NCBI GenBank assembly: GCA_042568285.1
Contig: JBHPIX010000002.1
Span: 783-64,782, forward strand
Direction of reading: 5' to 3'
From: Patescibacteria group bacterium
GTDB taxonomy: Bacteria; Patescibacteriota; Patescibacteriia; JAZDEU01
Length of the DNA stretch: 64,000 nucleotides
Of the stretch, positions 35,607 through 61,977 are shown piece after piece (the stretch's first letter is position 1; the number at the start of each line of letters is the position of its first letter). Position numbers and translations under genes: made by a program. A model generated the notes under the pieces. That model saw nothing but the letters and a program-made list of their open reading frames with translations, did no database searches and was not told the origin of the DNA.

Positions 35607-36046
35607 TTACGTCAACAACATTTTTAAAAGAGCCATACGAACATATAATCCATTTTGTATCTGGCGAAAATATGCCGCGCGAGGATCAAGATCAACCTCT
35701 GATAAAATTTCTCCTGAACGGGGGAATGGATGCATAATAATTGATTTCTCTTTCATAATATCCAAAATACTTTGATCAATAATATATTTGCCATAAGCTT
35801 TTTCATATTCAGAGAGGTTTTCAAAACGTTCTCTTTGAATTCTGGTTTGATAAATCACATCTACTTCTTTTGCGACTTTTCGCAAATCAGATTCTTCTAT
35901 AAAAGTCGTATTATGCTTTAACAAATATTCTTTAACATCATCTTTCATTTTAACAACATCTGGCGCGACAAAATAAATTTTAATTCCATCAAATTTAGTA
36001 AGCAAATATGACAAAGAACGAACTGTCCTGCCAAATTTTAAATCTC
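35607..36046 (-). pseudogene. pyrB: Aspartate carbamoyltransferase, 3' half only (truncated at the IS boundary)
   Basis: The frame reads (R)DLKFGRTVRSLSYLL ... YQTRIQRERF ... IMHPFPRSGEI ... LLT*. The N-terminal carbamoyl-phosphate domain is absent. The reading frame runs straight into the left IR of the IS at 36047. Confidence 0.8.
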
Positions 36047-37139
36047 GGTTTAATAGACAAAAAGTGTTGGTAAAATTACCGTTTTTGTTGTAAGATTAGC
36101 TATAAACCAATAACAAATTTAAAATGATTTAAATTTATGGCTAATCTATCAAAAAAAACACTGTCTTTTTTGTAAAAAATCATCCGTTATTAAGTGGGGA
36201 AAAAAGAATAAAAAACAAAGATGGAAATGTAAAATTTGTAATAAAACTTTCTTTTGGACAAATGTTGGTACGAAACGAAATCAACAATTAAAAATATTCC
36301 AAAGATGGATAATTGGAAAAAGAACATTACAAGAATTATCAGACGAAAACGGAAAGTCAGTTCGCACTTTACAAAGATTATTTGAATATTTTTTAAACAA
36401 TCCACCTGTGTTGAAAATAAGACAAAATAATAATTGTCATTTATTTATCGATGGGACATATTTTACAAGAAAATTTTGTTTATTAAATTATTCTGATAAC
36501 GATTTGAAATATTTACAATTACAGACAATAGTTGAACGTGAAAATTATGACAATTATTTAACTGACTTAAAGTTATTAAAACATTCAGGTCTAACAATAG
36601 CCTCTATCACTTCAGATGGACAAAAAGGGCTAATTAAAGCAATAACTGAGGTATTCCCTAATGTAATTCATCAGCGATGTATTATTCATATATAGAGAAT
36701 GTGCTTAATATATTTAACACGACATCCGAAAACTTGGGCTGGCGAACAATTGCGAGATTTAGTAAGAGGATTGCATCAGATAAAAACTTTCCAAGAAAAG
36801 GATAAATGTATCCGTGAATTTAACAGCTGGAACAGAGTGTGGGATAAATTTTTAAAACAGAAAAGTGAAAGTCCGTCAGGTAGAAAATGGTATACTCATA
36901 AATTACTTCGTCGCGCAAGATCGTTAATACAAAATGCATTACCAGATATGTTTCATTATTTAGAAAATTCTAAGATTCCAAAATCAACAAATGGATTAGA
37001 AACTAAATTTTCTTATCTAAAAAATAATTTAAAAATTCACCGTGGTTTAATTGAAAAGAACAGAAAAAAATTCATTCTTTGGTATAATTATTTTAAGTAT
37101 AATTAACAAATTTTACCAACACTTTTTGTCTATTAAACC
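36047..37139 (+). mobile_element. 1093-bp insertion sequence with perfect 31-bp terminal inverted repeats and a decayed transposase
   Basis: The left IR is ggtttaatagacaaaaagtgttggtaaaatt (36047-36077). It is the exact reverse complement of 37109-37139. The immediate flanks (aaatctc | caaaacta) show no direct duplication. Confidence 0.85.
36137..37106 (+). pseudogene. DDE transposase (IS256/Mutator-like core with N-terminal zinc ribbon; family tentative), one frameshift plus one in-frame TAG
   Basis: MANLSKK runs into an A8 tract (36151-36158). The +1 frame continues HCLFCKKSSVIKWG...WKCKICNKTF...LFIDGTYF...ITSDGQKGLIKAITEVFPNVIHQRCIIHI, then TAG (36696-36698), then ...STNGLETKFSYLKNNLKIHRG. 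Confidence 0.75.
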
Positions 37140-37350
37140 CAAAACTACTATCCCTGAAAATATAATCTATCTTGTCTACATCAAAAGGGCCATTTATGAT
37201 ATGGGCAAGAAAAAGCTTTGATGGCTCTTTAGTCTTTCCTATAATATACTTAGCTACTGTATCCAAATCTATTGATATAGGATAATTTGACTCAATGTTT
37301 TTATGGATTAATCCAACACAAGACTTTAATTCTCTGGGAAGTGGATTGTC
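37140..37350 (-). pseudogene. HD-domain (dGTPase/SAMHD1-like dNTP triphosphohydrolase) fragment abutting the right IS end
   Basis: The minus-strand frame reads ...LIHKNIESNYPISIDLDTVAKYIIGKTKEPSKLFLAHIINGPFDVDKIDYIFRDSSF and then enters the IS IR. It has no start codon and overlaps the 5' end of the LamG ORF. Confidence 0.45.
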
Positions 37351-40300
37351 TTACGAGCAGATATTTATAAGTAAGTCTCCTACAAATGGCGCAGAAGAAG
37401 GAAGTTTTATTTTTAAAATTGATACAGATACAGATAAATTGCAATTTGGCGCGTTTGATAATGCAGGCGATGTTGTTGTTAATATTTTTGGTACGAATAC
37501 ATCTTGGAATGCTAATCAATGGTATCAAATAGCAATTACATTTAATGGGGCAGGTTATGAAGTTTATTTAGACGGTCAGTCGGATGGGTACACTACAGAT
37601 TCAGATTCGTTTGGTTCAACAGATCAAACATATTACATTGGAAGAGCTGGAAATGATGTAAATCCTCAATATTTCGACGGCCTCATAGACTCTGTCAGAA
37701 TATACAACCGAGCCCTAACCGCGAATGAAATAAGGGCGCATTATGATTTGGGAAGCCATATACAAGATGGGGATATGGAGGATGCTTCTGGCAGTCGTGT
37801 TGTTGGAGAATGGAATCAGTCAAGCGAGGGAGCGGAACTTTTAACAAATGGAGGATTTGAAACAGCTGGCGGTGGCGGAGCAGATGTTTGGGGAACATGG
37901 GCGGAAAACGCTGGGGATGGCGGGTTGGCGAATGAGACAAGTATAAAATACGCTGGTTCGGATGCGGCATCAACAACTGCTGGAAGTTTAACAGACACTT
38001 TTGTCAAACAAGCCGCGGCAGTTACCACTGGCAATATGTATAAGGCGACATTTTATACAAGAGGCGATGGAACATATTCAGGACAATACGCGATTTGGGA
38101 TGCCACAAATGATGCTGTTATAACAGCCACAACAACAGCTGGAATTACTGGAACAACATACACTAAATTTACAAAATATTTCACAGCGCCATCCAGTTGC
38201 GCGTCAGTTGATCTGCATTTATACGCGCCATCAACTGAAGGCGGAACCGCGTATTTTGACGATGCGTCTGTCATAGCCGCCCAAGTGGCGTCACCCGAAT
38301 CTGGAATTGTTCGCGCGGAAGATGGGCTTGTCGGGGGGTGGAATTTTAGTGGAACATCCGGGACATCCGCGGATGGGGATACTTTGACAGATGTGTCTGG
38401 AAACAGCAATGATGGAACAGGCGTTGATGGAGCTAATAATACTGGTTTAGGATTTGTGAGTGGTCGGTTTGGGACTGCGATTGAGTTTGATGGGGTGGAT
38501 GATTATGTTGATTGTGGAACGAATAGTAGTTTATTACCAAATATATTTACAGCCATAGCATGGGTTAAATATGATGGAAGTCAGACAGATGCACCTTTGA
38601 TTACTTGGGCTACAACTCAACCCGGGATTTATATCGAGTTCTTGAACGTCGGTCCACTTATCTATATTGGTGTTGAAAATTTTAGATACTTTGAAAAAGA
38701 TAGTCCAGTTGATGTATTTAATAATAAATGGCATCAGCTTGCTTTTGTAGTAACAGGTAATGCCCAAAACGATATTGATAATTCAAAATTATATGTTGAT
38801 GATAGAGAACAAGATATTAGGACTACTAACAATACTGGTACGCCCGACACAAAAACTTTTCTTAGAATTGGAGTTGGGCATTCGAATTATTTCAACGGCG
38901 CCATAGACTCCGTTCGCGTATATAACCGCGCCCTATCTGCAGGTGAAATAGTGGCGCATTATTCGTCCACACGAGGGAAGTTTGGGGAGTATTCCGCGAA
39001 GATAAAATTAGTAGATGATAATAGCAACAGTTATTTAGATGAAATATTAACTGATGATCAAGATTATCTGCTGTCATATTGGTATAAAGCAGGAGAAGAC
39101 AATGCTAATCCGATAAATTTTACAGCGTCTGGCACTGCCATAATGCTTCCTGAACAAAACATAATGGCTTCGTCCACAACCGGACTTGTGGGAGCTTGGA
39201 ATTTTGAGGAAGCGGCGACACCATCGGTAGATGTATCTGGAAATGGACATTCATTAACATGGAACGGAACAGCGGCAAAATCAACATCTGGAAAATTCGC
39301 AAACGCGATAGACTTAGATGGCGATAGCGATTATTTAAATAAAACAGATTCAGATAGTTTAGATTTAGCATCAGCCGCAACAATATCAGCATGGGTATAT
39401 TTAGATGATCTTGCTGCCCAACACTGCATTGCGGACAAAGGAACAAATTACGGAGTTCATATAGATACTTCAGGATATTTAACATGGGATAATGGAACAG
39501 AATATAAAGACACAACAGCAATAGCGGCAACAACATGGACGCATGCAGTAGTAGTTAATGATGGAACAACAGCAAGTTATTACATCAATGGAACTTACTC
39601 AAGCAATGACACAGCAGGATTCGCGGCTATAAACGCAAGCGATTTAAGAATAGGATATGATGGAACAAATTATTACCAAGGATTGATAGATAATTTGAGA
39701 ATATATAATAAAGCCCTAACTGCCTCTGAAGTGTATGAAAGCTATAAAGCAGGAGATTGGAGACAATATGAACTGTCATTTGAAGCAGACGCTGGAGTAG
39801 CAGGAGTCCATGCTTTTAGCTTTATTCAAGATGGAACAACAGCCGGCAACAGCATCGTTTATGTGGATAACTTTAGATTGGATAAAAATTTAGCGGATAA
39901 AGGTTCGTTTGAAGCTTTTTCCGGCGGAGACCCTGACATTCCAACTGGATGGGTAAATGAAAGTTTGTCAGCAGGAGAAGGGGACGAAGGCGATGAGGAA
40001 ATACATTCTGGAAGCAAAAGTTTTGAACTCATTGACGCCGACGATGGAGAAGGAATTATGCAGGGGATTACTGTGACATCTGGCAATTGGTACACATTTG
40101 GAATGTGGGCAAAAAATAATAATCAAGATGTGGAAGCAATAATAGGAGGAACAGCTCTCGCAAGCACAACCATTGATTTGACGACCGCGGGAAATATTTG
40201 GACAAAATTTAATAAAACATTTATCGCAAGCAGTACAGATTTGGCGATTTTAATTTCTGCCGGAGCCGCAACCCAAGACGGATATTTTGACGATGTAAGT

Positions 40301-42757
40301 CTGGTAGAGCTGGACTCCTACTCTGGCGCGGCAACTGCCACAACAACAACACCATCGTCTGCCGCAAACTCATACAGCTATGGCAGATGGGGAGAATCTT
40401 CTGGCTCGTTGATGATGGATGGAGGGGATACTTTAACATACCCGACAGCGAATAATATGTATGCTGATCAAGGATCATTCAGCTTTTGGATAAAGCCGTC
40501 TATGGACTATGACGACTATGCGGAAAATAAATACCTTTGGGATGTTTCAGACGGAACAAATAACGCCATAAGATTATATTACAATTATTCTGACTATAAA
40601 TTCTATTTTGAAATATACGACGGAGCGTCTTGGACATCTGTGCAAGCAGCTTCTTCTGCTCAATCTTTTACAGAAGACACGTGGATACATTTGGCAGGCA
40701 CATGGAACGACAGAAAAAATTTGGTTTATTTATATGTGAACGGCGCGAATGACGGATCATCGGATTGGGGTTGGTACGCGCAAACATTGCCGACTAATAT
40801 GTATTTTGGATCTGATTACAGCGGAACAAATAACGCTGATATGTATATTGACGATTTGCGGGTTTATGAATACGCGCTTTCAGCGGAAGATATTAGCCGA
40901 ATGTACGGCTCTCTTCCAGATCCGTCTGCTGACAATTTAAGAGTATCAATCCCATTCACATCAGGAGGAATTGGCATAGACGGAACTGGATTATTTGATC
41001 TCACTGGAACGTTTACTGCTGGGTGGGGATACCGAACTGGAAAAGTGTCTGGAGAAAACGCCATGCTCTTCGCTGGTTCCGACGATCTGCAGTTTTCACG
41101 TGGAGACCAGCTGGACGGCAACATTTATGAATATATTAGCCCGTATCAGGGCACGATTAAAACTTGGGTTAGATCTGGATTTGATGGATCAGATTCTACA
41201 ACAAATTACATTTTCCAAAATGGAAGCACAAGCTACATCAAACTGTACTCCAGTTCAGGAACTCTATATTTTGACATAGCAACAACAACAGGCGCTGTTA
41301 TTAGCAGAGTATCAAATGACATTTCTGGCTGGACAGCGGGAGAGTGGCATCATATTGCCGCAGTTTGGAGCAATGAAAATACTGTTTCAACAAGTTCCAC
41401 TCAATATTTAATGGAACTATATGTGGACACTGCCATCGCTGGAAATACTTATACTAATGCCACATTTAACACAAATTTTTGGGCATCGTTCGCCCCCGGA
41501 ACATCTTTTATTGGAGAAGATTCAGATTCAGCAAATCAGTGGGATGGATTGATTGGAGGATTTGTTTTGGAAAATCGGGCTTGGAGCGGGAATGAAGTGT
41601 CTGACGACTATAATTCTGGAACAGGCACTGCGGTTGCGGTTAATCAATCAACCATTATGTCCCTGCCATTTGATTCAGCTGATCTTGACGGATTGGTAAC
41701 TTGGGCAACCTCTACACAAAATGTGGTGGCTGATTGGAATATGGAAGATGGGGATGCGGGGGAATGGACAGATACGTTAAACGCTTCCAGCTCCGCAGAA
41801 TCAGGAATCGTAACAGCAGAGGATGGGTTGGTGGGGGGATGGAATTTTGAGGATGATTTAACAGATGATAGCGGGAATAGCAAGACAGGCGTTTCTCATA
41901 CAGATCCAGACTGCCCGACAGGCTATGTATTTGTTCCCGGTAATTCAACTTATAGCACAAGCGATTTCTGTGTAATGCAATATGAAGCGAAGTATGATTC
42001 TAATGACGACGGGACAGGGGATGACGCGCCAACAGAATGTAAATATAACACAGATTATGATACTTGGGACTGGGGGAAAGATGTAGCGACAGAATGCGGG
42101 TATGATGTAAATGAAACAGCAAGAGTAGTATCAACAGCGGCAGGATCTCCAATAGCTGGCATTACGCATACAGAAGCGTTAAGCGCCTGTCCCTCTGGGG
42201 ATCATATAATAACAAATGACGAATGGATGACAATCGCAAGAGACGCGGAACAAGTGAATGCTAACTGGACAGGCGGAGAAGTCGGTTCGGGGTGTTTGTT
42301 TGCAGGGAATAATGGAGACGCGACTTGCGGGTATAATGGCGATGATCCAGAAAAAGGAACTGGAAGAAACGCGAGAGCTAAATTTATTCTTTCCAGCGGA
42401 GAAGAAGTTTATGATATATCAGGAAATGTTTGGGAACATGTAAAAGTTGATGCAAGTGATACTTTAATTGATGACACTCCTACTGACGGCGGGGCGGCTG
42501 AATGGCGTTGGATTGAATTTACAGCTATTACAGGCTATGGCGATCTTAGTTATGATCAAATTAGACCTTCTAATTCTTCTTGGAATGCTGATCAAGGGAT
42601 GGGGCGATTATATACCTATAATGGCGTGAGTAGCAACCGCGTGTTTCTTCGTGGTGGCATGTGGTCCGATGATACTAACGCCGGCGCGTTCACGTTGAGC
42701 TTGAATTGGACGGCGAGCACTCAGCATTATACTGTTGGTGTGCGGTGTGCCAGGTAG
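37295..42757 (+). CDS. DGR target protein: multi-LamG (concanavalin-A-like) repeat protein with CBM-like modules and a C-terminal C-type-lectin/FGE-sulfatase-fold variable domain; apparently 5'-truncated
   Basis: The LamG signature recurs (F(D/N)G.IDSVRIYNRAL(T/S)A.EI..HY) along with NGGFE...YFDD modules. The C-terminus reads CPTGYVFVPG...DISGNVWEHV...VFLRGGMWSDDTNAGAFTLSLNWTASTQHYTVGVRCAR. There is no signal peptide or RBS, and the ORF begins inside a LamG domain (MFLWINPTQ). Confidence 0.85.
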   Translation: MFLWINPTQDFNSLGSGLSYEQIFISKSPTNGAEEGSFIFKIDTDTDKLQFGAFDNAGDVVVNIFGTNTSWNANQWYQIAITFNGAGYEVYLDGQSDGYTTDSDSFGSTDQTYYIGRAGNDVNPQYFDGLIDSVRIYNRALTANEIRAHYDLGSHIQDGDMEDASGSRVVGEWNQSSEGAELLTNGGFETAGGGGADVWGTWAENAGDGGLANETSIKYAGSDAASTTAGSLTDTFVKQAAAVTTGNMYKATFYTRGDGTYSGQYAIWDATNDAVITATTTAGITGTTYTKFTKYFTAPSSCASVDLHLYAPSTEGGTAYFDDASVIAAQVASPESGIVRAEDGLVGGWNFSGTSGTSADGDTLTDVSGNSNDGTGVDGANNTGLGFVSGRFGTAIEFDGVDDYVDCGTNSSLLPNIFTAIAWVKYDGSQTDAPLITWATTQPGIYIEFLNVGPLIYIGVENFRYFEKDSPVDVFNNKWHQLAFVVTGNAQNDIDNSKLYVDDREQDIRTTNNTGTPDTKTFLRIGVGHSNYFNGAIDSVRVYNRALSAGEIVAHYSSTRGKFGEYSAKIKLVDDNSNSYLDEILTDDQDYLLSYWYKAGEDNANPINFTASGTAIMLPEQNIMASSTTGLVGAWNFEEAATPSVDVSGNGHSLTWNGTAAKSTSGKFANAIDLDGDSDYLNKTDSDSLDLASAATISAWVYLDDLAAQHCIADKGTNYGVHIDTSGYLTWDNGTEYKDTTAIAATTWTHAVVVNDGTTASYYINGTYSSNDTAGFAAINASDLRIGYDGTNYYQGLIDNLRIYNKALTASEVYESYKAGDWRQYELSFEADAGVAGVHAFSFIQDGTTAGNSIVYVDNFRLDKNLADKGSFEAFSGGDPDIPTGWVNESLSAGEGDEGDEEIHSGSKSFELIDADDGEGIMQGITVTSGNWYTFGMWAKNNNQDVEAIIGGTALASTTIDLTTAGNIWTKFNKTFIASSTDLAILISAGAATQDGYFDDVSLVELDSYSGAATATTTTPSSAANSYSYGRWGESSGSLMMDGGDTLTYPTANNMYADQGSFSFWIKPSMDYDDYAENKYLWDVSDGTNNAIRLYYNYSDYKFYFEIYDGASWTSVQAASSAQSFTEDTWIHLAGTWNDRKNLVYLYVNGANDGSSDWGWYAQTLPTNMYFGSDYSGTNNADMYIDDLRVYEYALSAEDISRMYGSLPDPSADNLRVSIPFTSGGIGIDGTGLFDLTGTFTAGWGYRTGKVSGENAMLFAGSDDLQFSRGDQLDGNIYEYISPYQGTIKTWVRSGFDGSDSTTNYIFQNGSTSYIKLYSSSGTLYFDIATTTGAVISRVSNDISGWTAGEWHHIAAVWSNENTVSTSSTQYLMELYVDTAIAGNTYTNATFNTNFWASFAPGTSFIGEDSDSANQWDGLIGGFVLENRAWSGNEVSDDYNSGTGTAVAVNQSTIMSLPFDSADLDGLVTWATSTQNVVADWNMEDGDAGEWTDTLNASSSAESGIVTAEDGLVGGWNFEDDLTDDSGNSKTGVSHTDPDCPTGYVFVPGNSTYSTSDFCVMQYEAKYDSNDDGTGDDAPTECKYNTDYDTWDWGKDVATECGYDVNETARVVSTAAGSPIAGITHTEALSACPSGDHIITNDEWMTIARDAEQVNANWTGGEVGSGCLFAGNNGDATCGYNGDDPEKGTGRNARAKFILSSGEEVYDISGNVWEHVKVDASDTLIDDTPTDGGAAEWRWIEFTAITGYGDLSYDQIRPSNSSWNADQGMGRLYTYNGVSSNRVFLRGGMWSDDTNAGAFTLSLNWTASTQHYTVGVRCAR
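42635..42756 (+). other. DGR variable region (VR)
   Basis: It is 122 nt and 109/122 identical to 43199-43320, with 11 mismatches opposite TR adenines. It covers the last 40 codons of the target ORF. Confidence 0.88.
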
Positions 42758-42801
42758 TTTGTAGATATCTGGTATCTGAAATTTAGGTATCTGGTAAAAT
42801 T

Positions 42802-43134
42802 ATGATAAATGATTTAATACTTTTTCAAAAATTTTATGATTTTATCCTTTGGATTTATCCTACGGTCAACAAATTTCCCAAAACCCAAAGATTTGTTTTA
42901 GGACAGCAAATTTCAAATACGGTTTTAGATATTTTAAAAAATATAATTCAGGGAAATTCTGAACGATATAAATTACCATATCAAAAACAGGTAAGTGTTG
43001 ATCTGGATAAATTAAGGATTCTAATTCGTCTTTCAAAAGATTTAAAATTTATAAGTATAAAGCAATATGGATTTGCTTCGGATAAAATTAATGAGATTGG
43101 AAGATTGTTGGGTGGTTGGATAAAAAATACTTAG
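42802..43134 (+). CDS. avd: DGR accessory variability determinant (Avd-like four-helix-bundle protein)
   Basis: It is 110 aa and lies between VR and TR. Avd-like features are YPTVNKFPKTQRFVLGQQI and the C-terminal EIGRLLGGWIKN. Confidence 0.8.
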   Translation: MINDLILFQKFYDFILWIYPTVNKFPKTQRFVLGQQISNTVLDILKNIIQGNSERYKLPYQKQVSVDLDKLRILIRLSKDLKFISIKQYGFASDKINEIGRLLGGWIKNT

Positions 43135-43198
43135 AACATATAAACTTGAAGTTATTTAGGTTTATGCGTTTTAGGACGCAGAAGGGGTAAAGTCGCAT

Positions 43199-43320
43199 AA
43201 CCGCGTGTTTCTTCGTGGTGGCAAATGGAACAATGAAACTAACGCCGGCGCGTTCACGTTGAACTTGAATTGGAATGCGAGCAATCAGAATTATAATGTT
43301 GGTTTGCGGTGTGCCAGGTA
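43199..43320 (+). ncRNA. DGR template repeat (TR)
   Basis: It is a non-coding copy of the VR, rich in AAY codons when read in the VR frame (NRVFLRGGKWNNETNAGAFTLNLNWNASNQNYNVGLRCAR). It has 32 adenines, 11 of them substituted in the VR. Confidence 0.88.
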
Positions 43321-43483
43321 TTTCTCAATTTGGTCTGAGTGAAATGCTTACGGGCATAAGTCCGAGCCAGAAAACTACTGATTTTATTCCATCCTTGAAA
43401 AAGGAAAATACTTGGCTTTTACCTCAAGGCGGTGAGAGTATTTTCTTTAGAAAAGAAATTTCCGTCTTGAGCATTAAGCCATT

Positions 43484-44515
43484 ATGAAATCACACAAGAA
43501 TTTATTTTTAAAATTTTGTTCTTTTGAAAATCTATATAGCGCATACTTAAAAGCAAGAAGTTGTAAACGATATAAAGAGTATGTTTTGGAATTTAGCTAT
43601 AATTTAGAGCAAAATTTATTCTTTTTACAAGATGAATTAATAACTCAAAAATATCATTGTGGAAAATATAATGAATTTATTGTTAATGATTCAAAAAAGC
43701 GACTTATTAAAGCGCCTGATTTTAGAGATAGAATTGTCCATCACGCGTTATGTAATATTATTGAACCGATTTTTGACAATAGTTTTATTCACGATAGTTA
43801 TGCCTGCAGAAAAAACAAAGGAACGCATAAAGCGATTTTGAGATTAAAGGGTTTTTTAAAAAATAAAGAAAATGTTTATTGTTTACAATGTGATGTTAGA
43901 AAATTTTTCGCGAGTATAGATCAGAATATTTTAAAAGAATTGACAAAGAAGAAAATAGCGGATAAAAAAATTTTGAAAGTTATAAATTTAGTAATAGATA
44001 GTAGTTTTGACAATAAAATTTATGAAAATTTATTTGATTTTCGTTTAACAGGAGTTCCTTTAGGAAATCTTACAAGCCAGCTTTTTGCTAATATTTATTT
44101 GAACGAATTAGATCAATTGGTAAAGCATAAACTAAAAGCAAAATATTATATTCGCTATATGGATGATTTTTTAATTTTGGGGTATAATAAAAAGAGATTG
44201 CAACAGCAAAAAGAAGAAATATATTATTTTTTGAAGAATAGCTTAAAATTAGATTTGCATCCTAAGAAATGTAATATGTTTACTGTAAAAAGTGGAATTG
44301 ATTTTCTTGGTTATAGAATTTTTGCAAATTATCGTTTGTTAAGAAAAAGCACAGTGAAAAGATTTATAAAGAGGACAAGAGTTTATAAACGGAAAGTAGA
44401 TAGCGATTTGATGTCATTAGAAAAATTTAATCAATCTTTGCAGTCATGGCTTTCTTACGCTAAATTTGGGAATTCATGGGGGTTGATTGGAAGTTTGGTT
44501 GAGCTTTGGAATTAA
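43484..44515 (+). CDS. DGR reverse transcriptase
   Basis: RT motifs include GVPLGNLTSQLFANIYL (44051-44086; the (I/L)GxxxSQ signature typical of DGR RTs) and YMDD (44156-44167). It starts 164 nt downstream of the TR. Confidence 0.9.
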   Translation: MKSHKNLFLKFCSFENLYSAYLKARSCKRYKEYVLEFSYNLEQNLFFLQDELITQKYHCGKYNEFIVNDSKKRLIKAPDFRDRIVHHALCNIIEPIFDNSFIHDSYACRKNKGTHKAILRLKGFLKNKENVYCLQCDVRKFFASIDQNILKELTKKKIADKKILKVINLVIDSSFDNKIYENLFDFRLTGVPLGNLTSQLFANIYLNELDQLVKHKLKAKYYIRYMDDFLILGYNKKRLQQQKEEIYYFLKNSLKLDLHPKKCNMFTVKSGIDFLGYRIFANYRLLRKSTVKRFIKRTRVYKRKVDSDLMSLEKFNQSLQSWLSYAKFGNSWGLIGSLVELWN

Positions 44516-44586: not shown

Positions 44587-45849
44587 ATGATTCAAAGAGA
44601 AGCGTTGCAAAAAATTAAAAAATGGCTTGGTAAAGAAAAAATCTTGATTATTAAAGGCGCTAGGCAAGTTGGCAAAACGTTTTTACTCAAAGAAATTAAA
44701 AAAGATTTAGAAAATACAGGAGCCAAAGTTGTCTATTTATCAGCAGATGAAATTGACAATAAATTAATATTAAAAAGTTCTGATAGTCTAAAATTATATT
44801 TAGAGCAATATTTTAATTTTCCCAATGAGTTTATTTATTTAATGATTGATGAGTTTCAAGTAATAGAAGAAGCTGGGATTTTGCTCAAAAATATTTTTGA
44901 CAAATATAAAAATAAAATTCAGCTGATTGTTAGCGGATCAAGCGCGTTAGAGATAAATAAAAATTCGGAATATTTAACAGGCAGAGCTATTCATTTTAAT
45001 ATTGATAGGATTAATCTTAAAGAATATTTTGATTATCACGAAGACATAAATACTAAGAGATATAAACTTGCCCAATTTAATGAATTAAAAATATTTTTTG
45101 AAACCTTCAAACCAAAATTGGAATTGAGTCTTGGAGAATATCTGTCTTATGGAGGTTATCCAGAAGTTTTGACAACTCAAAATGTGGAAGAAAAAGAGGA
45201 GGTACTTAAATCTATTATCAAAACATATATTGACAAAGATATTATCAATCAGTTGAACGTGGAAAATATCACTGGCTTTAATAATTTGATAAAAATTTTA
45301 GCCGGGCAAATAGGGCAATTAACAAATAACAATGAACTTGCAAATACATCCAATATATCTATCAATACTTTAAAAAAATATTTAGAAATTTTGGTAGGCA
45401 CTTATGTTATTGATTTAGTTACCCCATATTTTAAAAATATTCGTTCAGAAATTTCCAAAATGCCAAAAGTTTATATTTTGGATATTGGTATTAGAAATTA
45501 TCTTTTGCGAACTTTTGAAATAAATTTGGATGGGCAAGGATCAGTAATTGAAAATTTTGTTTATAATACTTTGCTAACTCAATATGCCAAAGAATATATC
45601 CATTTTTATCGCACTTCTGCCGGAGCGGAAATTGATTTTGTGATTGAAGATAAAAATAATAAATTAACACTTTGCGAGGTAAAGTATAGAAATAAAATAA
45701 ATGTGCCAGTGATAATGAAAAATTTTGAGGAAAGATATACCAATGTTGGAAAAAAATTGATTATAACAAAAGATTTATTGAAAATAGAAAAAAGTGTTTA
45801 TTTTATTCCAGTCGCGCTTTTACCGTTTGTGGATTTAGGATTATTATGA
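44587..45849 (+). CDS. AAA-family ATPase of the COG1373 type (AAA_14 + DUF4143-like C-terminus)
   Basis: It has Walker A (GARQVGKTFLL) and Walker B-like (LMIDEFQ) motifs, and the C-terminal half is typical of this family. Its stop overlaps the start of the next gene (ATGA). Confidence 0.75.
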   Translation: MIQREALQKIKKWLGKEKILIIKGARQVGKTFLLKEIKKDLENTGAKVVYLSADEIDNKLILKSSDSLKLYLEQYFNFPNEFIYLMIDEFQVIEEAGILLKNIFDKYKNKIQLIVSGSSALEINKNSEYLTGRAIHFNIDRINLKEYFDYHEDINTKRYKLAQFNELKIFFETFKPKLELSLGEYLSYGGYPEVLTTQNVEEKEEVLKSIIKTYIDKDIINQLNVENITGFNNLIKILAGQIGQLTNNNELANTSNISINTLKKYLEILVGTYVIDLVTPYFKNIRSEISKMPKVYILDIGIRNYLLRTFEINLDGQGSVIENFVYNTLLTQYAKEYIHFYRTSAGAEIDFVIEDKNNKLTLCEVKYRNKINVPVIMKNFEERYTNVGKKLIITKDLLKIEKSVYFIPVALLPFVDLGLL

Positions 45850-48428
45850 AAAAATACACAATAACAATTTTATTTTGCATATCTGCTTTGGGAGGACTTT
45901 TCCTTTTTTCTAAACCCGCAAACGCCGCTTCTTACATTACCGGTCGTTTTGGGCAGGCGCTTTCTTTTGATGGTAGCGGAGATTATATTGATATGGGAGA
46001 TGTTTCAGCGACTGTAAAAACAGTTAGTTTTTGGGTTAGCCCAAATAGTACGACTGAAAAATTTCTGGAACTTAACGGTGAGGCGTATATAGACGCAACA
46101 AGTGGAACAGTGGCGGCAACTGGTTTTACAAGTCCAACTATTTATGTGGATGGCGCGGAATCTTCAACATTAAGTACTGGTTGGCATTATGTGGCGGTTA
46201 CAACTGGAACAGCGATAAATGCCAATTCTGTGATTGTCGGAAAAATTTCTACAACATATTTCACTGGATCTATGGATTCTATTAGAATCTACAACCGAGC
46301 CCTGTCCGCCTCAGAAATAGCAAATCATTATTTCTCTGGCAGAGGGAAGTTTGACGATTATTCAGCGAAGATCAGACTAATGGCAGATGATGCTGATAGT
46401 TATTTAGATGAAAATTTAACATTAAATCAAGATTATCTGCTGTCATATTGGTATAAAGTAGGACAAGATAATGCTAATCCGATAAATTTCACTCTTTCAG
46501 GTTCTGGAACTATAGTAGCAGAAGAAAATATAATGGCTTCGTCCACAATGGGACTGGTGGGAGCTTGGAATTTTGAGGAGGGCGGATCATCTGCTACTAC
46601 TGCTGACCTTTCTGGAAACAACAATACTGGAACATTACAAGCAGGAGATGATACTGGAAGTAATGATTCTGCTACTGATATGTGGACAGGTGGTGTATCT
46701 GGAAAGTTTGGACAGGCGATTGAGTTTGATGGGACGAATGATTATGTTGATATAAATAATCCTGTTTTAGGAGCAACAGAAATGACAGTTTGCGCGTGGG
46801 TAAAAAAAGTAGGATTTGTAAGATATGCAGGGATTGTTGCTGATTATAATACAGAAGGTTATAAAAATTTTATGTTAGGATACGAAAATCCAGAAAATAC
46901 TTTAAAATTTTATGTTGGAGATGGTTCTAATATGGATTCTATTGCAAAAACAGGTTTAACACAAGATGTATGGCATTATGTTTGCGGAGTTTTTATCGGT
47001 TCCCAAACTGTAAGCATTTACATAGATGGTGCGGGTAGTACAGAAAGCACTTCAATCACGAATATAGGTTTAACACAAAGTGCGAGCTGTGATATAGGGC
47101 GATATCATGGTAGCTATGAGTTCAACGGCCTAATAGATTCCGTCCGTATCTACAACCGCGTCCTCACAGCAAGCGAAGTATATGAACATTACAAAGCGGG
47201 AGACTGGAGACAATATGAACTATCATTTGAAGCAGATCAGACAGGCGCGCATCTGTTCAAATTTATACAAGACGGATCCACATCTGGAAATTCTATTGTT
47301 TATGTGGATAATTTTAGGGTGGATACTAATTTGACGGAAGACGGAGATTTTGAAAGTTTTCAAGGAGGAAATCCTGACATTCCTACGAGTTGGACTAATG
47401 ATGGTTTAGATTCTGGTGAGGGGGTAGAAGGGGTGGAACAGATTCATTCAGGGAGTAATAGTTTGAAATTAGTCGCGGCAGATGCGGATGAAGGAATTTA
47501 TCAAGATGTTACAGTAGAATCAGGAAAATTTTATACCCTTGGAATATGGGCGAAAAATGACAATCAAGATGTGGATGTTGTTTTGAGCGATGCAGTTTCT
47601 GCTACTGTTGATTTAACAACAAGTAATAATAATTGGACTAAATTTAATTATACATTAAAATCAGGTGGAACTACTTTAAGGATTACAATTATATCCGGCG
47701 CCACGGATCAGACAGGATATTTTGACGATGTTAGTCTGGTAGAGCTGGATTCATATTCAACAAACACAGATCCGACAACAACAACACCGTCTGCGACAGC
47801 AAATTCATATAGCACAGGAAAATGGGATGGAGCGAGTAAAGCCTTCTTATTAGATGGCGCGGATGATTTAGAATATAATGCTTCTGGCGTTTTATCAACT
47901 GCAAGCGGAACAGTATCAATGTGGTGGAAACCGATGTGGGATTATGATGCTTATGATGAAGATGCATATATTTTTAACAGCGAAGACGGAACGAATAATT
48001 TTATGAGAGTATATTTTGACGCTTCAGAAGATAAAATTATCGCCAATCTGTATGATGGAACAAATTGGACAAATGTTACAGCAACATCTTCAGCGTTAAC
48101 ATTCGCGGAAGATGTATGGCAACACATTGGAATAATTTATGGAAATGATACTGGAACAGTTCGTATCCTTTTGGACGGCGCGGAATCTGGGACAGATTAT
48201 GATGGATCAAGCTGGACAGAACAAACTGTGCCAACATATTTTTATCCGGGTTCCCTTTACGGCGCGTCCGCGAACACAAACCAAGCGGACGGATGGATAG
48301 ATGACATCCGAATATATGACACAGCATTGGCGACATCATCCTTAAATGATCTTTACACAATTGATCCAAACCCGCCGACAAACGCCACATGGAATCGGAA
48401 TTTGGCAGATCCTATTATTGATGGATGA
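45846..48428 (+). CDS. Secreted LamG-repeat protein, paralog of the DGR target, without a VR
   Basis: It has a signal peptide (ILFCISALGGLFLFSKPANA). It is colinear with the target at ~38.9-40.9 kb (for example DYLLSYWYK.G.DNANPINF, LTASEVYE.YKAGDWRQYELSFEAD, GYFDDVSLVELDSYS). It has no C-type-lectin tail and no TR match. Confidence 0.8.
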   Translation: MKKYTITILFCISALGGLFLFSKPANAASYITGRFGQALSFDGSGDYIDMGDVSATVKTVSFWVSPNSTTEKFLELNGEAYIDATSGTVAATGFTSPTIYVDGAESSTLSTGWHYVAVTTGTAINANSVIVGKISTTYFTGSMDSIRIYNRALSASEIANHYFSGRGKFDDYSAKIRLMADDADSYLDENLTLNQDYLLSYWYKVGQDNANPINFTLSGSGTIVAEENIMASSTMGLVGAWNFEEGGSSATTADLSGNNNTGTLQAGDDTGSNDSATDMWTGGVSGKFGQAIEFDGTNDYVDINNPVLGATEMTVCAWVKKVGFVRYAGIVADYNTEGYKNFMLGYENPENTLKFYVGDGSNMDSIAKTGLTQDVWHYVCGVFIGSQTVSIYIDGAGSTESTSITNIGLTQSASCDIGRYHGSYEFNGLIDSVRIYNRVLTASEVYEHYKAGDWRQYELSFEADQTGAHLFKFIQDGSTSGNSIVYVDNFRVDTNLTEDGDFESFQGGNPDIPTSWTNDGLDSGEGVEGVEQIHSGSNSLKLVAADADEGIYQDVTVESGKFYTLGIWAKNDNQDVDVVLSDAVSATVDLTTSNNNWTKFNYTLKSGGTTLRITIISGATDQTGYFDDVSLVELDSYSTNTDPTTTTPSATANSYSTGKWDGASKAFLLDGADDLEYNASGVLSTASGTVSMWWKPMWDYDAYDEDAYIFNSEDGTNNFMRVYFDASEDKIIANLYDGTNWTNVTATSSALTFAEDVWQHIGIIYGNDTGTVRILLDGAESGTDYDGSSWTEQTVPTYFYPGSLYGASANTNQADGWIDDIRIYDTALATSSLNDLYTIDPNPPTNATWNRNLADPIIDG

Positions 48429-48483
48429 CAAATAACATCCGCCAAATCGGCGGATTAAAACAATAATAAATTTACAAATGACA

Positions 48484-48640
48484 AAAGAATCCCCCTCGTC
48501 TCGCCTTTCCGCTTCGGGCTCGAATCGAGACGAGCGGCAAGCCGAAGCGGACTGACCCCCTTTTGAAAAGGGGGAACTAGAGGAATTAATTTAGCAAGTG
48601 CCCCCCTCTGGAGGGGGGATAGGGGGAAGGTTAAATTTTA
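48484..48640. repeat. GC-rich modular repeat cluster (intergenic)
   Basis: The sequence aaagaatccccctcgtctcgcc...ggcaagccgaagcggactgacccccttttgaaaagggggaacta is followed by the gtgcccccctctggagggggg palindrome. The first module recurs inside the giant ORF at 51956-52024. Confidence 0.85.
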
Positions 48641-48709
48641 AATTTTAAAAAAACCTGCCCGACTTTGTCATTCAGGCGGGTATCAAATAACAAATTTTAA
48701 AAGGGCTCT

Positions 48710-48786
48710 GGATTCCCGCCTTCGCGGGAATGACAAAAACGCATTCGTGGGGAATGACAAAGAGGCTTCGCGGGAATGACAAAAAC
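48710..48786. repeat. Three tandem half-elements ending in gggaatgacaaa
   Basis: The sequence is ggattcccgccttcgcgggaatgacaaaaac / gcattcgtggggaatgacaaagag / gcttcgcgggaatgacaaaaac. It generates the artificial MTK...GMTK N-terminus of ORF 48730. Confidence 0.8.
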
Positions 48787-48816
48787 GGGAGGGGAGGGAA
48801 TAATTTCAAATTAGTT

Positions 48817-49350
48817 ATGGTTATAAATATGCTTAAAGAAGAAAACAATTTAGCTTTTGTTGACGGACAGAATTTATATTTAGGGACAACAAAGTCAAAA
48901 AACAGGTGGAAAGTTGATTTAGCTAAGTTTAGAATTTATTTGAATAAAAAATATAAAGTTGATAAAGCTTATTATTTTTTGGGGTGCGTTAATGATAATT
49001 ACCAAGATTTGTATGACGAAATTCAAGAAGCTGGTTTTATTTTGAAATTTAGAGAACATAATACTGTTATGTTGGGGAAGAAAAAAGGCAATGTTGATTC
49101 AGATATTATATTTTTTATTATAGAAAAAATGTATAGAAAAGAAAAATTTGATAAAATTATTTTAGTCTCTGGCGATGGTGATTATAGAAAATTAGTTGAT
49201 TTTTTGATTGAAGAAAATAGGTTTGAGAAAATTCTTTTTCCAAATAAGAAATTCGCGTCTTCCTTGTATAAAAAATTATCAAGCAAATATTATGACCATT
49301 TAGGAAACGAGGAAATAAAAGCGAAAATAAAAAAGGGTCCCCTTAGGTAG
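48817..49350 (+). CDS. NYN/LabA-like (PIN-like) domain protein
   Basis: It has LAFVDGQNLY, GNVDSDIIF and ILVSGDGDY motifs. The start is moved to ATG 48817 because the first 29 codons of the tracked ORF are repeat sequence. Confidence 0.7.
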   Translation: MVINMLKEENNLAFVDGQNLYLGTTKSKNRWKVDLAKFRIYLNKKYKVDKAYYFLGCVNDNYQDLYDEIQEAGFILKFREHNTVMLGKKKGNVDSDIIFFIIEKMYRKEKFDKIILVSGDGDYRKLVDFLIEENRFEKILFPNKKFASSLYKKLSSKYYDHLGNEEIKAKIKKGPLR

Positions 49351-49414
49351 TTAGCCGTTCGGATTCCCTTCGTCTTGATAGTTATATTGTAGCATATTTA
49401 ACATTTATGTCAAG

Positions 49415-49597
49415 GGTGTGGGGGGGGATCCTTGTCAACCCTGTTTCTGCTGGAATACACGAAGGGGGGAACACGAATCTTGAGAGTGGGGACAGTCCGC
49501 CTTTCCGCCTCGGCTCGCTCCGCTTCGGATTGCCTAAGGCGAGACGGGAGCTCAGCGAGACAGGGGCTCGACAGCAAAGTCGAGACAGGGGGTGTGT
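49415..49597. repeat. GC-rich modular repeat cluster
   Basis: It contains acacgaa modules, gtccgcctttccgcctcggctcgctccgcttcggattgcctaaggcgagacgg, and cgagacagg words. The overlapping ORFs 49382-49609 (-) and 49407-49631 (+) are probably artefacts. Confidence 0.8.
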
Positions 49598-49785
49598 AAA
49601 ATTTGGCAAGGAATTTATAAATATGGTATAATAATTGGGGAATGAATTTTAAATTTTAAATTTAAAAAAAATAATCAATAATAAATATCAAATAACCAAA
49701 CGGGAAAATCAAATCCAAATGTCAAAAATGGAAATGGGAATTTAAAATGTTTAAAAGAAATATAAAATTAAAAAATAAAAATAGC

Positions 49786-49815
49786 AAATTAAAAACTGCT
49801 CTGTTAAAAGCAGTT
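49786..49815 (-). terminator. Rho-independent terminator of the tRNA gene
   Basis: On the minus strand the stem is AACTGCT / AGCAGTT (forward 49809-49815 and 49794-49800), followed by TTTAATTT. Confidence 0.6.
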
Positions 49816-49823
49816 CTTAGGTG

Positions 49824-49895
49824 TGGACATGACGGGAATCGAACCCGTACGACTACCTGTCAAGAGCAGCATGCTACCATTAACATTACATGCCC
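49824..49895 (-). tRNA. 72-nt class I tRNA with anticodon UGA in the best fold; acceptor carries G3:U70 and A73; identity uncertain
   Basis: The fold is GGGCATG TA ATGT TAATGGTA GCAT G CTGCT CTTGACA GGTAG TCGT ACGGG TTCGATT CCCGT CATGTCC A. The T-arm is canonical, and U8, G18G19 and U33 are present. Oddities are U14 and C37. No CCA is encoded. Confidence 0.65.
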
Positions 49896-49910
49896 ATGTC
49901 CACAAGATTT

Positions 49911-49939
49911 ATTATAAAGCAAAAAGAACCCTTTTTCAA
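49911..49939 (-). promoter_or_regulatory. Sigma-70-type promoter for the tRNA gene
   Basis: On the minus strand: TTGAAA (forward 49934-49939), a 17-nt spacer, then TATAAT (forward 49911-49916). The -10 box ends 15 nt upstream of the mature 5' end. Confidence 0.55.
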
Positions 49940-50082
49940 GGATCCTTTTTGTTGACAGGTAGTAATGCCTGTAATGTATAGGCATACTGCTCTTAATGTT
50001 TAAAGTATAGCATAAATTAAAAAAATGTCAAGTGTTAAAAAATTTTATGGAATTAGGTAGTTAATTAGAGAGATAAATTATA

Positions 50083-53000
50083 ATGCAAAAAAATATAAAA
50101 AATAAAAATCACAGACCCCCCCCTACCCCCCCCTTAGTAAGGGGGGGAGCGAATAACCTCCCCCCTGCCAAGGGGGGAAGCAGGGGGGTAGAAAAGAGGG
50201 GAATTATATTGTTGTTAACAGCTATTTTTGTTGTGAGTGGAATTTTTGGCGGTCTGCTGAAAACGAAAAAAGTAAATGCGCAAAATTTTATAGATACGGC
50301 TGCTCTGCAACAACGAGAAAGAGACTATCAGACTCACCTTGCAGAGGAAGCAGCAGACAAAGCTAAAGAGTTGAAGTGGAAGGCATTTAAGACGGCGACT
50401 TATAATATAATAGTTAGCATGGCAAATAATTTTACTCAAAGCCTTGCTTATAATTCAGCTGTATTTATAGCAGAAGGCGGGAAAGGCAGACAAGGTTTAG
50501 GTTGGAGTGAAAGTTGGAGTAAATATTTGAACGATGCAAAAGATGCCGCTCTTGGCGACTTTATTGGTTCAATTAGCCAAGTATGGGGAGTAGATTTTTG
50601 CGATCCCGGAGCGCTTGAAAAAATAGATATAACATTTGGGTTAATCGCAAGTATTCAAAAACCGCCTAAACCGAGATGCGATTGGAAAGATATAAAAAAC
50701 AGTTGGGACAAATTAGATGACAATGATTTTACTACAAAATTAGGATTTATGTTTAATCCAAAAGTTAATTATTTAGGAAGCAGTTTTGCTCTTAAGTCAG
50801 AAATGGAGCAGTCAGCAAAAGATAATGAAAACTTAGCTAAAATGGTCAGAGGAATACCAACAGAAACAGGATTTAAAAGTATCAATGATACTGTGTCAGG
50901 GTATATACAAACTCCTGATAGTATAATTAAAGAGATGGCATGGTATCCTGCGGATGAAGCGGCAAGAAATAGGCAAACAGAGGGGATCGGTAACGCTCTT
51001 ATGGCAGATCTTGTTGTCCCAACATTTAAGACATTTTTTAGCACCCTCACTGGAAAGTTAATGGAAAAATGGGCAAACAAAGGAATGTTTCAAAAAAGTT
51101 CTGGAAGCAGATCTATAACTGATCCAGAATCATCTGCCACATTAGTTGCGTCGCAAAATGACACAAAAGCGATGTATGGAGATTTAATGGAATCTGAGTT
51201 TGGAGCTGGAGGTAATTATGATATTTTATCTGATTTTGTTTCTTGCCCTGTTATGCCTCAAAATTTAAAAAATGGACCAACAAATTGTGTTATTGACAAC
51301 GGTTTTAGAATGGCTATTGAAGAAGGATTGACAGTTGGACAGGCTATAAATAATAATTATTTAAAAAAAGATAATATTTTTGGGTTTAAATCTGACGGGC
51401 AAACCCCAGATTATAAAGAAGGATATTCTTTGCGGAATATGATTATTTTAAGGAGCTATCGCATATTGCCAGTTGGCTGGGAAATAGCGACGCAATATAT
51501 TGAAAAATACATTGAAAGTGAAGCATATACTTTAGGCGAAATGGTTGCTTGTTATTCTATTGATGATAATTGGACAGGAGTTGAAGAAAGTTGGTGCAGA
51601 GGTATGGTTGATCCATCATGGGTTTTGAAAGCTCCAGCGAATAATTGTGATAAAATGGCTTATGGCCAAGAAATAATAAGTAAATCTACTAGTAAAGGAA
51701 TAGATATGAATAAAGACGGGAAATATTATAATTTTAATAAAGATAAAGATGATCCGTTAAATGAATTAGATGATAATGACAGTCCGCCAATAATGAACAT
51801 AACCCGCAATGAATTCTGCGCGGAAACTCAAAGTTGTTTAATGGAACGGGATGATGGCAGTTGTTTGAAATGGGGGACTTGTTTGGAGGAAAAGCGGATA
51901 TGGGAATTTGAAGGTGATAAATGCGATGCTATATATAATAGTTGCATGGAATATGAAAGAATCCCCCTCGTCTCGCCTTCGGCAAGCCGAAGCGGACTGA
52001 CCCCCTTTACAAAAGGGGGAACTAACACCACCTCGTCAACACGGGGAGGAATTGCGTATTTGAAAAATAGTTTGGATTATGGGGTTTGCGGAGCGAATAA
52101 TGCTGGATGTTCTTGGTTATGCCAATATTATGATAAAGAAAAAGAAGAATGGACATGTGGAATGGATCCAGCTTCGCCTTTAGCGTTTCCAGAAGGATAT
52201 AGTTTGCCAGCTCCGACGACTGGCGCGTTATTTTTTGATAATTCTGTCCAAGAATGCGAACAAGCGGATGAAGGATGTCATAAATATATTAGATTGACAG
52301 ACGGAGCGAATTTAGTTTTTAATGGCGGATTTGAAAAGGGCGCTGAAACAGCTTTAAATTTAGATGGTCAGCCCGCCAATTCTTCTGTAATAATCAAATT
52401 TAATGATTGGCCTATTGAAAAAAGTTCTGGAGATAATTTTGAAATTGAAAAGATGATTGATAATGAAAAAGGAGGCTGGGTTTATAAAATAACAACAAAT
52501 GGTGGAAATAATGGATTATATTTTTATGATAATTCTAAAAAAGATTTAACATTGATGCCAAGTAATTACAGATTTGATTTGTATAAAAATTACGTGTTTT
52601 CCGTTGATGTAAAAGTGATTTCTGGAAAGGTTGAGATCGGGCTTACAGACGGATCTGCACGGATTGTAAACGGATCTTCACGGATAGGTGAATGGGAAAG
52701 AATAGTTGTTGAATTGCCAAAGGAAGAAATGATTATCAATAAAGCTTTTATACATAGTGTTGGAGGATCGGAATTTTATTTAGATAATGTTCAATTGGAG
52801 GAGGTACAGACGGATTTGCACGGATTGGGAACGGATGGGGACGGATATGCGTATAAGGAGTATGGAGATTATAGCAGAGTAGCTTATATTAAAAAAGCTC
52901 CTGATTATTTAGATTGCGCGAATAATATAAAGTTATTTAAGCAAGGAGTGGAAAATGGGACTCTTACACCAACTGAACTGGAAAATTATGAAAACATTTT

Positions 53001-58368: not shown

Positions 58369-58385
58369 GGACACGAATTATAAAA

Positions 58386-58775: not shown

Positions 58776-58839
58776 TTTGACATTTGAGCTTTGGATTCCC
58801 GCCTGAACGAGCCATTCGGGCAGGTGATTTGACATTTGG
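58776..58839. repeat. 64-bp repeat, left copy of an inverted pair
   Basis: The sequence is tttgacatttgagctttggattcccgcctgaacgagccattcgggcaggtgatttgacatttgg. It is the reverse complement of 63373-63436 with one mismatch. Confidence 0.9.
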
Positions 58840-58869
58840 ATTTTGAAATTTGAAATTTTATAAAATTAT

Positions 58870-61839: not shown

Positions 61840-61858
61840 GGGGAAGGTCGATTTTTTC

Positions 61859-61965: not shown

Positions 61966-61977
61966 AATATATTTTAT

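Follow-up and report, generated by a model that had tools for sequence, protein, structure and literature searches.

We examined a 64,000-nucleotide (nt) stretch of DNA from a Patescibacteria group bacterium (assembly GCA_042568285.1, contig JBHPIX010000002.1, positions 783 to 64,782; hereafter the window), and we are highly confident that its positions 37295-44515 hold a canonical diversity-generating retroelement (DGR) on the chromosome of this Patescibacteria (candidate phyla radiation, CPR) bacterium. A variable repeat (VR) closes a giant target gene, and a template repeat (TR) lies downstream of it, from which VR differs mainly at TR adenines. The accessory variability determinant gene (avd) sits between the two repeats, and a reverse transcriptase (RT) gene follows. 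Cellular DGRs like this one have been described at length in Patescibacteria (PMC8144416, PMC5758913), so that the locus is one more of these and no new system. Direct results are its sequence anatomy, the families to which its parts belong, the fold, the covariation of the RNA and the adenine-specific trace that past homing has left; the remaining steps of the mechanism are drawn by analogy with the prototype of Bordetella phage BPP-1. The genes and repeats, with positions counted from the first letter of the window, are as follows.

37295-42757, + strand: target (variable-protein) gene, 1820 amino acids (aa); five LamG/ConA-like domains, then a C-terminal FGE-sulfatase/C-type-lectin-fold domain (about residues 1512-1820)
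42635-42756, + strand: VR; last 40 target codons plus the first two bases of the stop codon; 109/122 identical to TR
42802-43134, + strand: avd, accessory variability determinant; four-helix-bundle protein of 110 aa (NCBIfam and Pfam)
43199-43320, + strand: TR, the invariant donor copy; 32 adenines; 78-89% nucleotide identity in the related loci L001, L003 and L004
43484-44515, + strand: DGR RT, 343 aa; LGNLTSQ at residues 193-199, YMDD at residues 225-228

Repeat pair, reverse transcriptase, Avd and target domain

An ungapped alignment at an offset of 564 gave 109 identities over the 122 nt of VR and TR, and a separate repeat search lengthened the pair to 125 nt (42635-42759 and 43199-43323, 89%). 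Among the 13 mismatches, 11 fall on TR adenines and two on TR thymines. Read from TR to VR, these are A>T at 43224, 43229 and 43237, A>G at 43225, 43232 and 43263, A>C at 43230, 43275, 43284, 43289 and 43296, and T>G at 43276 and 43304. With 32 adenines in the 122 nt of TR, the hypergeometric chance that 11 or more of the 13 mismatches would hit adenines is 4.9e-6. The initial annotation, made from the letters and a list of open reading frames (ORFs), had described this pair with 11 of 13 mismatches at the same adenines, and our re-alignment returned the same positions and substitutions. Its coordinates for the target, Avd and RT frames agree exactly with the ORF list, and its translations of TR and VR equal the recomputed strings.

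In the VR frame TR reads NRVFLRGGKWNNETNAGAFTLNLNWNASNQNYNVGLRCAR and VR reads NRVFLRGGMWSDDTNAGAFTLSLNWTASTQHYTVGVRCAR, and 30 of the 32 TR adenines stand at codon position 1 or 2. TR contains ten AAY codons and one AAA codon, the latter being the only TR codon from which mutation can reach a stop. Altogether 18 codons are potentially variable, corresponding to about 1.8e17 proteins. No further VR-like copy was found in the 64-kb window.

The RT was compared with proteins of solved structure. Its best match in the PDB is 8ub7_A (E 8.5e-57 over residues 2-334), whose sequence is 100% identical to Brt of phage BPP-1 by tblastn, whereas the best group II intron RT in the PDB reaches only 1e-25 and retron-type RTs are weaker still. 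Across 29 aligned RT relatives the G-N-L-T-S-Q and Y-x-D-D columns do not vary, and the Pfam RVT_1 match of the RT is generic only. Judged by its sequence, the RT belongs to the DGR lineage and, among proteins of solved structure, is closest to Brt, in agreement with the earlier call of a DGR-type RT made from the LGNLTSQ and YMDD motifs. The proposed Avd-like gene between VR and TR was borne out as well, scoring 119.6 bits with the curated equivalog model NF033474 (DivGenRetAVD; cut-off 80) and 90.8 bits with Pfam bAvd (cut-off 40). Most DGRs possess an Avd; an exact copy of this one has no record on other contigs. The gene order, given at the outset as target-Avd-TR-RT, is identical to mtd-avd-TR-brt of BPP-1.

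For the target protein, Pfam assigned five Laminin_G_3 domains. Scanned alone, its C-terminal domain matched FGE-sulfatase with 25.7 bits against a cut-off of 23.3, the match reaching the end of the profile; no PDB chain matched the last ~310 residues by sequence. An AlphaFold2 (AF2) model built from 45 homologs had a pLDDT of 90.5 and a pTM of 0.89, and a Foldseek search of the PDB with this model placed TaqVP (5vf4, E 6e-9) at the top, followed by FGE, TvpA (2y3c) and Mtd (1yu4). The Pfam match, the AF2 model and the Foldseek result agree on the scaffold that the initial annotation had expected at VR. Therefore, on the predicted structure, VR makes up the C-terminal part of a domain with the C-type-lectin/FGE fold, an arrangement shared with characterised DGRs.

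The relatives of the RT provide independent TR/VR pairs. The closest database relatives are Patescibacteria proteins, and the sources of the relatives are mostly aquatic and engineered metagenomes. Scanning contigs with the single protein returned one distant locus only; scanning with the RT alignment added 80 metagenomic loci. In all, 85 related loci (numbered with the prefix L) were fetched. Contigs with the closest RTs (70-81% identity) have the same layout as the window. L001, whose RT is 80% identical, serves as an independent replicate: its target combines LamG and C-type-lectin domains, its VR (1098-1217) differs from that of the window, and 19 of the 22 mismatches with its TR (1660-1779) lie at TR adenines. 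In a uniform census, about 34 of the 85 loci had on one contig an A-biased TR/VR pair, with at least 70% (mostly over 90%) of the mismatches at TR adenines. In L076 and L080 (4938-5050), which come from different samples, the TRs are identical but the VRs disagree at 11 sites, every one a TR adenine. With RTs ~42% identical to that of the window, these two loci show adenine-directed diversification under way in nature within this RT family, though not in the window locus.

Two side observations concern these related contigs. Several have their first base where a VR ends on its 3' side or a little beyond (L003 at 1-20, L004 at 1, L013 and L016), and L086 ends just before its VR. Such breaks are consistent with assembly failure at a hypervariable repeat; they are typical of assemblers at hypervariable or repeated sequence, and are therefore indirect evidence of VR heterogeneity in those samples. 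In L004, a 120-nt direct repeat (38-157 and 561-680, 98% identical) surrounds a PDDEXK_3-domain gene. The gene stands after the VR-adjacent repeats and before avd, and the arrangement resembles a small insertion in the DGR cassette whose flank was duplicated.

DGR RNA, priming site and the 3' flank of VR

The DNA between the Avd stop codon and the RT start is 78-89% identical among loci whose RTs share 70-81% protein identity, and this segment folds more stably than its shuffles (z = -4.7). An RNAalifold consensus over 11 loci, together with the VR flank, yielded the following elements.

42755-42760, + strand: IMH-like site (IMH, initiation of mutagenic homing), TAGTTT (stop codon included); complementary to the spacer (Sp) strand AAACUA at 43372-43377
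42761-42794, + strand: cis element next to VR, consisting of GTAGATATCT and then three ATCTG(G/A) units GTAGATATCTGGTATCTGAAATTTAGGTATCTGG; candidate target-marking element
43183-43194, + strand: 5' strand AGGGGUAAAGUC of a long-range duplex, four bases 5' of TR, pairing with 43380-43391 (RNAalifold)
43331-43369, + strand: stem-loop ~10 nt 3' of TR; helices 2 and 3, 93-98% paired, 6 compensatory pairs
43370-43377, + strand: Sp primer strand GAAAACUA, pairing with the TR 3' flank at 43319-43326
43380-43411, + strand: 3' strand of the long-range duplex (43380-43391), small hairpin (43392-43395/43402-43405) and A-rich run (43406-43411) (RNAalifold)
43413-43481, + strand: long 3' stem-loop that stops 2 nt short of the RT start codon; helices 5 and 6, compensatory changes in 13 of 14 pairs

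Counted on the same 11-locus alignment from which the structure was derived, 91.3% of the consensus cells form standard pairs, a share that falls to 36-52% once the 3' partners are displaced by 1-3 columns. Two-sided changes occur in 25 of the 44 pairs against a shuffle mean of 13.2, and none of 500 shuffles reached the observed values. The long-range duplex comprises 12 bp, is 95.5% paired and has four pairs changed on both sides.

The order and position of the duplex, the stem-loop and the adenosines match the description of the BPP-1 DGR RNA, in which a cPRT-Stop duplex (avd:Sp) ends reverse transcription at the 5' side of TR, and whose elements the same authors also reported in CPR DGRs (bioRxiv 10.1101/2023.10.23.563531). 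On this comparison, the duplex 43183-43194/43380-43391 would be the analogue of the cPRT-Stop duplex, and the stem-loops at 43331-43369 and 43413-43481 would be positional analogues of the Avd-binding and bRT-binding stem-loops, respectively. A 59-70-codon ORF spans the 3' end of TR and the spacer in the window (43275-43487), L001 (1640-1840) and L003 (564-743), and gene callers call it in relatives. Since the region is a covarying structured RNA, this ORF is probably spurious.

The alignment also points to a priming site. An invariant UAC stands two bases before the spacer strand of the long-range duplex, and its A is 43377. In the same 11 loci, pairing between Sp and the TR flank averages 6.5 of 10 positions in register versus 3.3 when slid, the pairing being kept while the sequences vary, and the template base 5' of the Sp:TR duplex is G in all 11. 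The corresponding bases in BPP-1 are A56 of Sp and G117 of TR (bioRxiv 10.1101/2023.10.23.563531, PMC5703328). By analogy, we infer that A43377 is the candidate priming adenosine; with the primer paired to 43319-43326, G43318 would be the first templated base.

On the 3' side of VR, VR/TR identity stops 2-5 bases past the predicted initiation site, and for this reason the GC-rich end GCGGTGTGCCAGGTA is identical in VR and TR. The Sp primer strand can form six contiguous Watson-Crick pairs with the VR flank TAGTTT, whereas its pairing with the TR flank breaks at position 3. Across six independent lineages the VR-side pairing runs to 5-9 contiguous pairs with a mean of 6.3, against 2.8 in cross-locus comparisons, and only 2 of 720 permutations reached the observed sum. 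BPP-1 is similar, with Sp48-56 a perfect complement of the VR IMH (9 pairs) and an imperfect one of the TR counterpart, IMH*. We considered this complementarity as a new mechanism and rejected that view, as pairing of the cDNA-linked RNA primer with IMH had already been proposed by Naorem et al. 2017 to set the direction of homing in BPP-1 (PMC5703328). In line with that proposal, TAGTTT at 42755-42760 is inferred to be the IMH of the locus and would distinguish recipient from donor.

Taken together with the BPP-1 prototype, these elements suggest how the locus would work. The avd-TR-spacer region would be transcribed into a structured DGR RNA, on which Avd and RT would assemble through the stem-loop after TR, the long stem-loop before the RT gene and the duplex bracketing TR. 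The spacer strand GAAAACUA (43370-43377) would fold onto the TR 3' flank, and A43377 would prime cDNA synthesis from G43318. The RT would copy TR faithfully save at adenines, where any base could be inserted. The RNA-linked cDNA would then be placed on VR by homology and by pairing of the RNA primer with TAGTTT 3' of VR, replacing the last ~40 target codons. The predicted outcome is up to 18 variable codons on the ligand-binding face of the C-type-lectin-fold domain of a giant, multi-LamG, adhesin-like protein.

We found no significant GC-rich inverted repeat or hairpin 3' of VR in the window or in 11 relatives; such a hairpin 3' of IMH is not universal and occurs in ~34% of DGRs (PMC5758913). 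At this place the loci carry a GTAG-NN-ATCT block 2-6 nt 3' of the VR stop codon, followed by units of the ATCTG, ATCTA or TCTT type every ~7-10 nt. The block occurs 18 times in 555 kb (the window plus the loci), where ~20 occurrences would be expected by chance anywhere, and 14 of the 18 come directly after VR ends, all on the sense strand and including both targets of L039. Beyond the window, it is found at L001 1222, L003 25, L004 1, L012 229, L013 44, L016 40, L028 5174, L031 350, L039 6525 and 7833, L041 3236, L056 3646 and L060 8921. Short-range recurrence of 4-mers in the 50 nt after VRs averages 5.7, compared with 2.0 in other 50-nt windows of the same loci; for the window locus alone, this short-repeat enrichment is not significant (p ~0.11). 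More distant loci have other tandem units, YCTG or CTTGG, at the same VR-adjacent place. The element is not a feature of the avd promoter, because it travels with VR under any gene order. A description of it was not found in the DGR surveys consulted, which include PMC8144416 and PMC5758913.

A tentative idea, which we rate as doubtful, is that the GTAG-NN-ATCT block and its ATCTG-type repeats form a distinct target-marking element that replaces the GC-rich hairpin/cruciform of the BPP type. If so, the element might for example be a binding array or a replication-pausing site that exposes VR to the RNA-linked cDNA, and a clade-wide sequence element at the 3' end of VR would be a possible homing determinant. 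To our knowledge, the mechanism of the final cDNA incorporation is not established in any DGR. Recent work ties this step to the direction of replication (PMC12875486). We also considered a replication origin at ~30 kb, where the GC skew flips, which would make the target co-directional with replication and near oriC. This candidate was not supported, and no sign of an origin was found in the window: DnaA-box-like sites number 22 against 19.9 expected and are unclustered, and the skew tracks gene orientation.

Target export, genomic surroundings and alternative explanations

The initial annotation had called the DGR complete. All parts of a DGR are indeed present, but the target gene lacks the signal peptide of its closest co-linear homolog, P0244. 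The two proteins share 51% identity from residue 76/89 onward. P0244 begins with MKKQITTILLALTAILLLPKFVMA, of which the first 24 residues are signal-peptide-like by inspection, while the target ORF begins MFLWINPT and its M1 aligns with P0244 residue 31. An in-frame TAA (37283-37285) lies four codons 5' of the target ATG, and no hydrophobic leader was found upstream of this ATG in any frame. Most cellular DGR targets have a signal peptide or a transmembrane (TM) segment (PMC8144416); the target ORF has neither at its N-terminus, and the other four large proteins of the window (starts 45846, 50083, 58870 and 61960) do possess hydrophobic leaders. With the signal peptide lost from the ORF, the diversified protein may no longer reach the cell surface, and the target may be a recently disabled gene. 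A larger truncation, of 60-75 residues and reaching into the first LamG domain, had been deduced from the protein's own internal repeats; it was rejected, as P0244 shows that the first domain of the family natively starts there.

Several observations count against reading the locus as an intact and working DGR. The target lacks ~30 N-terminal residues of P0244, equal to the signal peptide plus ~6 residues, so that the diversified protein may be non-exported or a young pseudogene. Between purL and the target lies a scar of gene fragments (35607-37294). It contains half of an aspartate/ornithine carbamoyltransferase gene, the C-terminal one, which lies on the minus strand and ends ...GDLKFGRTVRSL at the boundary of an insertion sequence (IS); an IS256-family (Zn-variant) remnant at 36047-37139 (1093 bp, 31-nt perfect terminal inverted repeats), where a stop codon breaks the IS256-type transposase into two or more ORFs; and, on the minus strand, a fragment of ~55 codons, HD-domain-like by eye and with no Pfam match. 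The two TR-thymine mismatches (43276 and 43304) do not follow the adenine rule and could be post-homing drift. To these are added the RNA pair counts made on their own source alignment and the missing GC-rich hairpin. Finally, the evidence at the locus is a record of past homing, and current activity is unproven.

These points lead to the alternative that the DGR is a relic, once active and now decaying, whose target was deprived of its 5' end and export signal by a rearrangement associated with the IS, and whose VR is frozen and drifting. The N-terminal truncation beside four large proteins that keep hydrophobic N-termini, the scar with its 1.1-kb IS remnant, and the two non-adenine mismatches all speak for it. 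However, avd and RT are full-length with intact catalytic motifs; the RNA helices, the primer strand and the VR-flank complementarity are all intact; the 1820-codon target frame is open throughout; and non-A mismatch fractions similar to that of the window are common among relatives. The truncation could also be very recent, or the protein could be exported otherwise. We therefore regard decay as a serious possibility, though on the whole an unlikely one.

That the canonical DGR is resident on the chromosome follows from its surroundings. Both the RT and the target have a 100% identical counterpart among the NCBI proteins of a Patescibacteria group bacterium, encoded on a 67,287-bp contig and publicly annotated only under the names 'reverse transcriptase domain-containing protein' and 'LamG-like jellyroll fold domain-containing protein', and the exact target sequence does not occur on other contigs. 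The window (GC content ~0.33) holds genes for AspRS, IleRS, GyrB, FtsH, FtsW, RmuC and PurL and one tRNA-Ser, as well as giant surface-type proteins; therefore the DGR is chromosomal and cellular. It is very unlikely that a phage or another mobile element carries it, as might be supposed from the IS256-type remnant 150 nt upstream of the target and from the target GC of 0.41-0.43 (38001-42000). This GC may reflect either a composition rich in Gly, Thr, Ser, Ala and Asp or a foreign origin. The flanks consist of purL, aminoacyl-tRNA synthetase genes, gyrB, ftsH, ftsW and the surface proteins, the window showed no genes for phage structural proteins, integrase or terminase, and DGRs of Patescibacteria/CPR are described as almost entirely cellular, in a mostly aquatic clade (PMC8144416). 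An origin of the RT from another retroelement (group II intron, retron or defence-associated RT), with the 122-nt repeat as an ordinary duplication or gene-conversion tract, has a negligible chance of being right: although group_II_RT_mat (TIGR04416) is the best-scoring NCBIfam model at 157.7 bits, followed by Drt3a (69.8), Drt2 (47.3) and Retron St85 (45.9), and some database sources label relatives as 'retron-type reverse transcriptase', these scores are far under the curated cut-offs of 300, 200, 390 and 235 bits, Rfam detected no group II intron or retron RNA in the window at gathering thresholds, BPP-1 Brt leads the structural relatives with a margin of 30 orders of magnitude, the mismatches are adenine-specific, a dedicated DGR Avd lies between VR and TR, and A-biased TR/VR pairs recur with the relatives of the RT.

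Other genes near the DGR were noted. An AAA_14/DUF4143 ATPase gene (44587-45849) lies directly 3' of the RT. It was considered as a conserved DGR partner and rejected, since among the 85 loci it stands beside the RT only in L004 (2519-3324, 36% identity) and, with the strand reversed, in L039; its place here is probably a coincidence. Further 3', a run of genes for giant secreted or anchored proteins at 45846-63318, all on the + strand, looks like a surface-protein island, with members of 860 aa (three LamG_3 domains, no VR), 2761 aa (weak CBM_4_9 plus dockerin), 989 aa (He_PIG/Ig-like) and 452 aa (bacterial TSP3 repeats). Directly after the 2761-aa ORF is a second four-helix-bundle ORF (58386-58775; TIGR02436, the 23S rRNA-intervening-sequence protein family), with no RT or TR nearby. 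It was rejected as a second Avd or DGR remnant, because it has only the generic TIGR02436 match, does not match the DGR-Avd model and lacks similarity to the Avd of the window.

Significance and comparison with known DGRs

The locus adds one chromosomal DGR to the hundreds catalogued in Patescibacteria, and it is a clean example in which VR, IMH, Avd, TR, spacer-RNA helices, candidate priming adenosine and RT can be placed to the base. It gives covariation support to the RNA architecture of BPP-1, in a clade whose distance from BPP-1 is about the largest among DGRs, and comparative support, likewise from a very distant clade, for the proposal of Naorem et al. that the RNA primer recognises the VR flank. 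The loss of the export signal from a diversified gene bears on how fast a DGR cassette decays once its target is disabled.

Compared with BPP-1, the shared features extend from the proteins to the RNA. Besides the gene order, Brt is the closest solved relative of the RT, the I/LGxxxSQ and YMDD motifs are common to both, and VR forms the 3' end of a C-type-lectin-fold domain in each. Both spacer RNAs have a stem-loop after TR, a primer strand whose last base, an adenosine, comes 2 nt ahead of the strand of the long-range duplex, a small hairpin with an A-run, and a long 3' stem-loop. In both, the first templated base is G (predicted as such for the window), and pairing of the RNA primer is better on the VR flank (IMH) than on the TR flank (IMH*). 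The differences are as follows: the window DGR is chromosomal in a CPR bacterium, whereas that of BPP-1 is phage-borne; its target is an 1820-aa multi-LamG protein instead of a tail-fibre protein; its TR/VR homology ends 2-5 nt past the predicted initiation site, while that of BPP-1 runs ~17 nt further; the 5' strand of its long-range duplex falls between avd and TR instead of within avd; and in place of a GC-rich hairpin its VR is followed by the GTAG-NN-ATCT block and short direct repeats.

With the cellular DGRs of Patescibacteria/CPR, namely 'DGR clade 2' of Roux et al. 2021 (PMC8144416) and the 'CPR set' of Wu et al. 2018 (PMC5758913), the window shares a low-GC CPR host, an Avd and a VR domain of the C-type-lectin/FGE type, and by this likeness it would probably be placed among them. 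The homologs of the VR domain are mostly proteins of ~450-525 aa with a prepilin-type N-terminus (PF07963), whereas a giant LamG-repeat carrier is the minority architecture, seen in the window target, L001, P0244 and P0185. Finally, TaqVP of Thermus aquaticus (5vf4) and TvpA of Treponema denticola (2y3c) were matched by the modelled domain with Foldseek E values of 6e-9 and 1.7e-4 and probabilities of 0.99-1.0. Their sequence identity to the window domain is ~13-17%, the TM-scores are 0.32-0.50 and the N-terminal context differs, but in these proteins, as in the window target, VR is a C-terminal segment ending ...RCAR.

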